DNA of 19,182 nucleotides. Origin: a virus (taxonomy: Duplodnaviria > Heunggongvirae > Uroviricota > Caudoviricetes). The notes under the pieces were generated by a model that saw only the letters and a list, made by a program, of their open reading frames with translations, searched no databases and was not told the origin of the DNA. The stretch lies in the IMG/VR virus record IMGVR_UViG_2706794676_000003. One strand, written 5' to 3'. The position numbers and the translations under genes were made by a program. Of this stretch, positions 106 to 234 are shown one piece after another (the first letter of the stretch is position 1; each line of letters begins with the position of its first letter).

Positions 106-234
106 CAAAAGCGGAACGAAAAATCTCAGGAAAAAAAGCCAGTATTCGATGCGGGCCTGAATGAGGGCGACGCGGAGGAATTTTCGTTCTGTCCCGATGA
201 ATTCGGCATTTCTGACCAGCAGGCTAAGTTTGCG

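Follow-up and report, generated by a model that had tools for sequence, protein, structure and literature searches.

In tailed phages, it is the small terminase that recognises pac or cos and brings in the large terminase TerL. Small terminases of the Terminase_2 type for which structures have been solved are G1P of Bacillus phage SF6/SPP1 and those of Pam5, PaP3 and NV1. Rac of E. coli K-12, which we take to be a lambdoid cryptic prophage with trkG that is in decay, has lost most of its structural genes by deletion. In Shigella, IS600 is one of five insertion sequences that have expanded, and insertion of an IS accounts for 50% of the pseudogenes in S. sonnei, in most cases with no further inactivating mutation (Hawkey et al. 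2020, PLoS Genet, PMC7373316); the word 'prophage' has 0 occurrences in the main text of that paper. Here we describe a Rac-like prophage in which, very probably, IS600 has split the small terminase gene terS at codon 70 with duplication of the trinucleotide CAA, leaving a remnant without a start codon in the sequence under study.

The sequence analysed (19,182 nucleotides; hereafter the window) represents the whole contig CWTQ01000079.1 of the short-read S. sonnei assembly GCA_001257855.1 and contains the late structural half of a Rac-like lambdoid prophage adjoining trkG. The terS remnant is located directly upstream of terL within a head-morphogenesis operon and is followed by terL itself, a DUF4055 portal gene and a gene for a Mu F-like head protein. 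The large terminase gene terL (974-2275, plus strand, 433 aa, Terminase_6N/Terminase_6C) overlaps terS, its ATG at 974 being located 20 nt before the terS stop and preceded by a strong Shine-Dalgarno sequence (anti-SD -8.7 kcal/mol). terL is intact, and the genes downstream of it appear intact as well, except for N-masked stretches. There are five such N runs of 76-269 bases (2799-3064, 8825-9081, 14819-15069, 16792-17060 and 18017-18092), which sit inside the portal, tail-tube, tail-tip and gpJ genes. At the first two runs, the sibling contig L005 has real sequence, with lengths of 243 versus 266 and 242 versus 257 bases, and the runs look like scaffold gaps or masks and not like biology. The 5' end of the contig lies inside IS600 and its 3' end inside the tail gene gpJ (18093-19182), which occurs at a median of 2 and a maximum of 10 places per E. 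coli genome; because gpJ is multi-copy, we regard the 3' end as a repeat-induced assembly break, as is the 5' end in IS600.

Positions 1-105 of the window (minus strand) represent the left end of IS600, an element of the IS3 family. They are 100% identical over all 105 bases to copies that thousands of E. coli records annotate as 'IS3-like element IS600 family transposase' and form an exact substring of one annotated copy (L007), a containment that confirmed the IS boundary which the earlier note had placed between 105 and 106. The IS600 end reads ...GGCTACCTCA at 105, and the terminal inverted repeat TGAGGTAGCCTGAGTTTAACGGACA runs on the minus strand from 105 to 81. The two ends of the element, TGAGGTGTACTGG... 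and ...GGCTACCTCA (TGAGGTAGCC on the other strand), carry the 5'-TG...CA-3' repeats. The annotated L007 copy is described with a 'programmed frameshift' and is flanked by a 3-bp target duplication of its own, GCG. Besides the inverted repeat and the leader, only the first 13 codons of orfA are contained in the window (MSRKTQRYSKEFK..., ATG at 41..39, minus strand), and this transposase gene runs away from terS. A sigma-70-like promoter match at 62-90 (minus strand, consensus match only) is directed into the IS toward orfA. Scanning of positions 1-1100 yielded one promoter match compared with 1.3 expected in shuffled sequences and no outward promoter into the terS remnant at the IS600 end. Because both the transposase gene and the promoter match point away from terS, IS600 supplies no obvious outward promoter. 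A terminator-like hairpin at 219-233 was within chance (two found, 1.4 expected).

The terS frame had been described as open from the IS boundary to the ATG at 235, and we found this to be the case: frame 1 reads ...GRSVR* up to a TAA at 88-90 inside the IS and is then free of stops until the TAA at 991-993, which gives 48 open codons before ATG 235 when counted from 91 and 43 when counted from 106, while the other two frames of 106-234 contain one and four stops. A rescan also confirmed that 106-234 is devoid of in-frame ATG, GTG and TTG codons; near-cognate codons are limited to CTG at 157 and ATT at 208. The chance of about 13% that had been given for an open stretch of 43 codons was reproduced ((61/64)^43 = 0.127; 0.114 with local base composition), and calling the stretch suggestive only was appropriate, as it is not significant by itself. 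Proof of truncation comes from the homologues and not from the open-frame statistic.

Window positions 104-1000 occur at 100% identity in 778 of 5,426 complete E. coli genomes. They are 100% identical to the terS region of E. coli EC2 (WP_024240905.1) and 99.6-99.7% identical to several induced Escherichia phages. On the other hand, the IS600-terS junction was found in 0 of the 5,426 complete genomes, where the best matches cover only 104-1000, and in DNA alignments the S. sonnei sequences diverge from the intact alleles exactly at 105|106. Intact terS comprises 364 codons, the 70th of which begins at window position 106, with CAA at 106-108 encoding Gln70. The ATG of the intact gene precedes the junction by 207 nt and ATG 235 by 336 nt; in E. 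coli EC2 and in phage vB_EcoS-606R9 this start codon is found 4 nt past the stop of a gene for a 69-aa protein and is preceded by an AGGA Shine-Dalgarno sequence. The Rac-like small terminase (WP_024240905.1, phrog_51; phages vB_EcoS-606R9 and Rac-SA53) matches window 106-993 at 100% over codons 70-364, and the intact Rac-like prophages share the neighbours terL, DUF4055 portal and Mu F-like head protein. Intact prophages and the sibling contig also have the same upstream context, namely trkG, ParB_N, TAGT and the 69-aa gene. By comparison, the window copy is without codons 1-69 and without the native ribosome-binding site and has IS600 in front of it.

The upstream genes (L008 4878-5997; L001 1673-2792) encode a 310-aa TAGT-domain protein (PF20691), named 'GREB1-related protein' by PGAP, and the 69-aa protein, which belongs to no family. 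Both genes are located between trkG/ParB_N and terS and overlap or abut their neighbours, a layout as if they were translationally coupled to terS.

The window thus holds a 3' remnant of terS (106-993, plus strand) made up of codons 70-364 and the TAA at 991-993, 100% identical to WP_024240905.1. Within it, positions 106-234 (plus strand) correspond to codons 70-112, which encode the rest of a K/Q/A-rich linker and the start of helix 1 of the Terminase_2 domain, and, judged by identity to the intact alleles, this stretch is genuine coding sequence without a start codon. A full-length frame with its own start codon is absent from the window, where codons 1-69 are missing, while orthologues are 363-364 aa long. 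Gene finders instead call a 252-aa ORF (235-993, plus strand) that starts at an internal methionine, Met113, and that has been deposited as 'Terminase small subunit [Shigella sonnei]' (CSF46370.1, CSM92782.1). The complete N-terminal DNA-binding helix bundle with its LTxxQxxF helix is present in the intact allele and absent from this ORF.

The earlier note had proposed to look for homology upstream of the methionine at 235 and for homologues with additional N-terminal residues that would lie beyond position 106. Both were found: homology extends through all of 106-234 and past 106, and the intact alleles begin 207 nt further upstream, as described above. Relatives were collected in an exhaustive HMMER search (1,765 cluster representatives), and 21 sequences were aligned. 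Those with 81-99% identity all carry the N-terminal part, and their substitutions keep the frame. More distant long forms of 315-381 aa (31-54% identity) align from residue 1 and share the motif MxKPDW..L...F......S...WCE..GLNY..ARRYIKK, which is followed by a variable K/Q/A-rich linker. In addition, there are short forms of approximately 240-270 aa whose N-terminus is the LT/S-x-x-Q-x-x-F helix, some 8-10 residues ahead of the position of Met113. None of the relatives examined starts at the equivalent of Met113, a start that, had it been common to all homologues, would have spoken for the downstream ATG. Phe111 is invariant in 21 of 21 aligned sequences, and a product starting at Met113 would lack this residue.

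Profile comparisons gave a matching picture. The 70-aa piece upstream of the insertion matches positions 1-69 of phrog_51 ('terminase small subunit') with E = 2e-28, while the 252-aa ORF matches this profile only from position 100 of 261; the intact protein reaches E = 9.4e-76. With Pfam Terminase_2 (PF03592, cut-off 26.1), the 252-aa ORF scores 33.9 bits and the intact protein 34.5 bits, and the match of the ORF begins at profile position 19. The N-terminal module is not universally required, since core-only small terminases of about 250 aa occur in other phages.

Two further features of this family were apparent in the alignments. The C-terminal ~65 residues (window ~784-993, residues ~296-364) are swapped for an unrelated tail in some homologues from E. 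coli, Salmonella and E. marmotae that are otherwise ~85% identical (P0047, P0059, P0071, P0094); on sequence grounds this is a mosaic module boundary, and the tail presumably contacts TerL. Moreover, a frameshift allele (L003 9861-9900, corresponding to window 119-123) has a 1-bp deletion in an A5 run that is independent of IS600 and results in an 86-aa N-terminal fragment and the same 252-aa ORF. The fragment (P0131) is present in 70 contigs, including complete E. coli chromosomes, and variants of it also exist (P0138, P0146, P0150, P0154). To judge from its sequence, this allele is an independent inactivation of the same terS gene.

A second S. sonnei assembly, GCA_001257015.1, has on contig L005 a right IS600-terS junction that is identical to that of the window. 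Because IS600 duplicates 3 bp and its right end begins with TGA, we predicted that the missing piece of terS would encode a product of 70 aa (M1-Q70) closed by a TGA supplied by the IS, with a left junction reading ...GCA CAA|TGA GGT... Eight variants of the predicted product were looked up, and three exist in the protein collection. The exact 70-aa product is among the database entries (CSF19232.1, CSM48753.1), deposited as 'Uncharacterised protein [Shigella sonnei]'. GCA_001257015.1 and run ERR572944 both show the left junction. In the former, contig L008, which is recorded in two samples, contains in this order lysis genes, trkG, ParB_N, TAGT, the 69-aa gene and terS codons 1-70, followed immediately by TGAGGTGTACTGG...; the sequence past codon 70, TGAGGTGTACTGGCAATAGCGG..., comprises 107 bases that are the exact right end of IS600. 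The same left junction is present in ERR572944 (L011). Comparison of the junctions revealed the 3-bp duplication CAA, with GCACAA|TGAGGTG on the left (L008, L011) and CCTCA|CAAAAG on the right (window, L005); the right copy occupies window positions 106-108 (plus strand) and is codon 70 (Gln) of terS. Both junctions are available from one assembly, GCA_001257015.1, but on separate short-read contigs, which do not tie them to one and the same IS600 copy. When the left piece was joined to window positions 109-993, leaving out IS600 and one CAA, the intact EC2 gene was obtained at 1095 of 1095 bases. Such a reconstruction marks a simple and likely recent transposition into an otherwise undamaged gene.

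The number of contigs that contain the exact S. sonnei 70-aa variant needs to be read with care. Of the ten that are listed among 22 contigs, eight are not IS junctions, and only L008 and L011 show IS600. The 22 contigs do not equal 22 insertions, because the eight are of the intact type and end 1-2 bases past codon 70; they were retrieved because selection was on the exact 70-aa product. These eight contigs (L009, L010, L012-L017) derive from unrelated runs and metagenomes and from different assemblers and end with ...GCACAAA or ...GCACAAAA, and the break base that they share suggests a common graph branch, for example through co-resident prophages that diverge past the N-terminal module.

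We then considered what the insertion separates at the level of the protein. In the AlphaFold model of intact TerS (mean pLDDT 78.9), N-terminal helices span residues 6-20, 24-30 and 35-38 (pLDDT 82-92), and a model of the 70-aa fragment has helices at 6-20, 24-31 and 35-42 (pLDDT 76-90). A linker follows at residues 65-93 with pLDDT below 50, and the landing site of IS600 lies within it. The codons upstream of ATG 235 (..FGISDQQAKFAML..) had been thought to continue a terS helix, which agrees with the model, where helix 1 of the core comprises residues 106-116 and is bisected by Met113. The N-terminal module is likely a helix-turn-helix (HTH), as suggested by the model: the top Foldseek matches of the 70-aa fragment are nearly all HTH proteins (DeoR, sigma region 4, Aca1, TraR), with a best E of 1.3, and neither the full-length nor the 70-aa model had a match at E ≤ 0.001 against the PDB. 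Sequence libraries gave hints below threshold: the 70-aa piece matches phrog_32288 ('HTH DNA binding protein') with E = 0.0016, and the N-terminal module scores 25.4 bits with the NCBIfam model IS66 TnpA, below the cut-off of 28. With Pfam, the only match of the N-terminal 112 aa was to MBT (E = 0.11), which we rejected as spurious. A literature search for a small terminase combining an N-terminal HTH with Terminase_2 gave no match.

Among solved structures, the DNA-binding domain of SF6/SPP1 G1P (2cmp, 4zc3) gave the best overlaps with the terS model (TM-score by target 0.74-0.75, rmsd 2.5-2.6 Å over 54-61 columns, probability 0.77-0.89), with Foldseek E values for the solved Terminase_2 structures of at least 0.38, none of which is significant alone. 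The Pam5 small terminase was found in a PDB sequence search with a weak match over terS residues 108-158 (E = 0.24). Compared with these proteins, the terS family has three extra parts, namely the HTH-like module at the N-terminus, a linker of ~55 aa that is disordered and an insertion of ~90 aa with four cysteines, and sequence and profile comparison gave no sign of them in the solved relatives. The four-cysteine insertion is located in the Terminase_2 core, where 200 residues span 110 Pfam positions, and is modelled with pLDDT above 90. Its motif CRYCWG ... CPKCCGEG (Cys195, 198, 245 and 248; window 481-642, plus strand) is intact in the remnant. The four cysteines do not vary among 21 relatives with identities as low as 31% and resemble a zinc ribbon or knuckle.

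What we observed directly are both junctions, the CAA duplication, two halves that are identical to intact terS, and a lost part that relatives conserve. By the mechanism that we propose, IS600 transposed into terS between codons 70 and 71 and duplicated the 3-bp target CAA. The upstream piece consists of codons 1-70 with the native Shine-Dalgarno sequence and ATG, closed by the TGA of the IS600 right end, and encodes a three-helix HTH-like module together with half of the disordered linker. The downstream piece, codons 70-364, follows past the IS600 left end without a start codon, and the N-terminal module would no longer be tethered to the core. That the native 5' end had been removed by the IS, one of two options raised in the earlier note, holds with one refinement: it has been cut off by IS600, but it has been separated and not deleted, since codons 1-70 survive in the sibling assembly. 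Some weak translation from ATG 235 or from a near-cognate codon may occur. Sequence and model together suggest that no functional small terminase would be made, because the Met113 product is without most of helix 1 and without the invariant Phe. As the small terminase recognises pac or cos and recruits TerL, we infer that the prophage cannot recognise and package its own DNA unless it is complemented.

The other option raised previously was that terS natively starts at ATG 235, in which case the 43 open codons upstream would be non-coding DNA that happens to be free of stops. Chance alone would leave that many codons open with a probability of ~11-13%, gene finders and the deposited annotation both give the 252-aa protein, and core-only small terminases of ~250 aa are found in other phages. 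Against this, the identical intact alleles read through from an ATG 336 nt upstream, so that ATG 235 is the internal Met113 of a 364-aa protein; the protein is conserved over 106-234 and upstream of it in relatives with as little as 31% identity, no relative begins at the Met113 equivalent and the invariant Phe111 would be lost. The weak Shine-Dalgarno sequence that had been noted ahead of ATG 235 was also borne out (anti-SD -3.4 kcal/mol, compared with -8.7 for terL ATG 974). We therefore reject this start, to which we assign a next to negligible probability. Unlikely, though by a smaller degree, is a deletion or inversion mediated by the IS after its insertion, by which the 5' piece of terS and the lysis/trkG region would have been lost or would now reside elsewhere. 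Since the contig starts within the IS, it does not reach the far side of this particular copy, and Shigella genomes have many IS600 copies that can recombine, in line with the IS expansion reported in PMC7373316; recombination between such copies could have moved the halves apart. Yet the sibling assembly has both junctions with matching CAA and with halves identical to the intact gene, and its L008 contig is recorded in two samples. Matching duplications speak for a simple, unrearranged insertion, and we infer that the two terS halves are still adjacent in the strain from which the window derives.

A split that leaves the prophage with a working small terminase is also conceivable, whether by late, anti-terminated readthrough of IS600 with the 70-aa HTH peptide acting together with a core translated from ATG 235, CTG 157 or ATT 208, or by TerS supplied in trans from another resident lambdoid prophage. 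Such a scenario would account for both pieces being without further mutations and for terL and the downstream genes being apparently intact, N-masked stretches aside; it can also draw on natural core-only architectures and on the independent frameshift allele with its 86-aa fragment and 252-aa ORF, which is widespread in E. coli (70 contigs). We nevertheless consider it very unlikely, as the Met113 product is without most of helix 1 and Phe111, a longer product would have to do without a canonical start codon and with little Shine-Dalgarno pairing, the scan showed no promoter directed outward from this end of the IS, and the lack of further decay is equally well explained by a recent insertion. 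Slighter still is the chance that the split gene is alive through Q-antiterminated readthrough, as a two-piece or specificity-altered small terminase, or through pairing of the remnant core with the machinery of another prophage. If split terS were active, packaging could be changed, for example towards looser pac recognition and more transduction of host DNA, and the widespread E. coli frameshift allele would be a tolerated or selected architecture and not decay.

Splitting of terS by IS600, the interpretation that we favour, has direct consequences for annotation: the 252-aa entries CSF46370.1/CSM92782.1 and the 70-aa entries CSF19232.1/CSM48753.1 represent one pseudogene. The junction sequences GCACAA|TGAGGTG and CCTCA|CAAAAG (30-mers GCGCAGACTGCACAATGAGGTGTACTGGCA and TAAACTCAGGCTACCTCACAAAAGCGGAAC) provide a possible lineage marker. 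As judged from the sequences, one recent lesion has probably left the prophage defective in packaging, since neither half has diverged from the intact E. coli allele. Such a packaging-defective prophage agrees with the genome decay by IS that is known from S. sonnei. Unlike Rac of E. coli K-12, the prophage has its structural module, and a single inserted IS constitutes the lesion. Collectively, our data indicate that terS is a split pseudogene and an example of ordinary gene decay by IS, known in kind and involving no new mechanism. The IS600 pseudogenes described by Hawkey et al. 2020 (PLoS Genet, PMC7373316) share with it the host species, the element (100% identical here), the 3-bp duplication and a coding sequence that is interrupted without any other inactivating mutation, and between them and the terS case there is no difference in kind.
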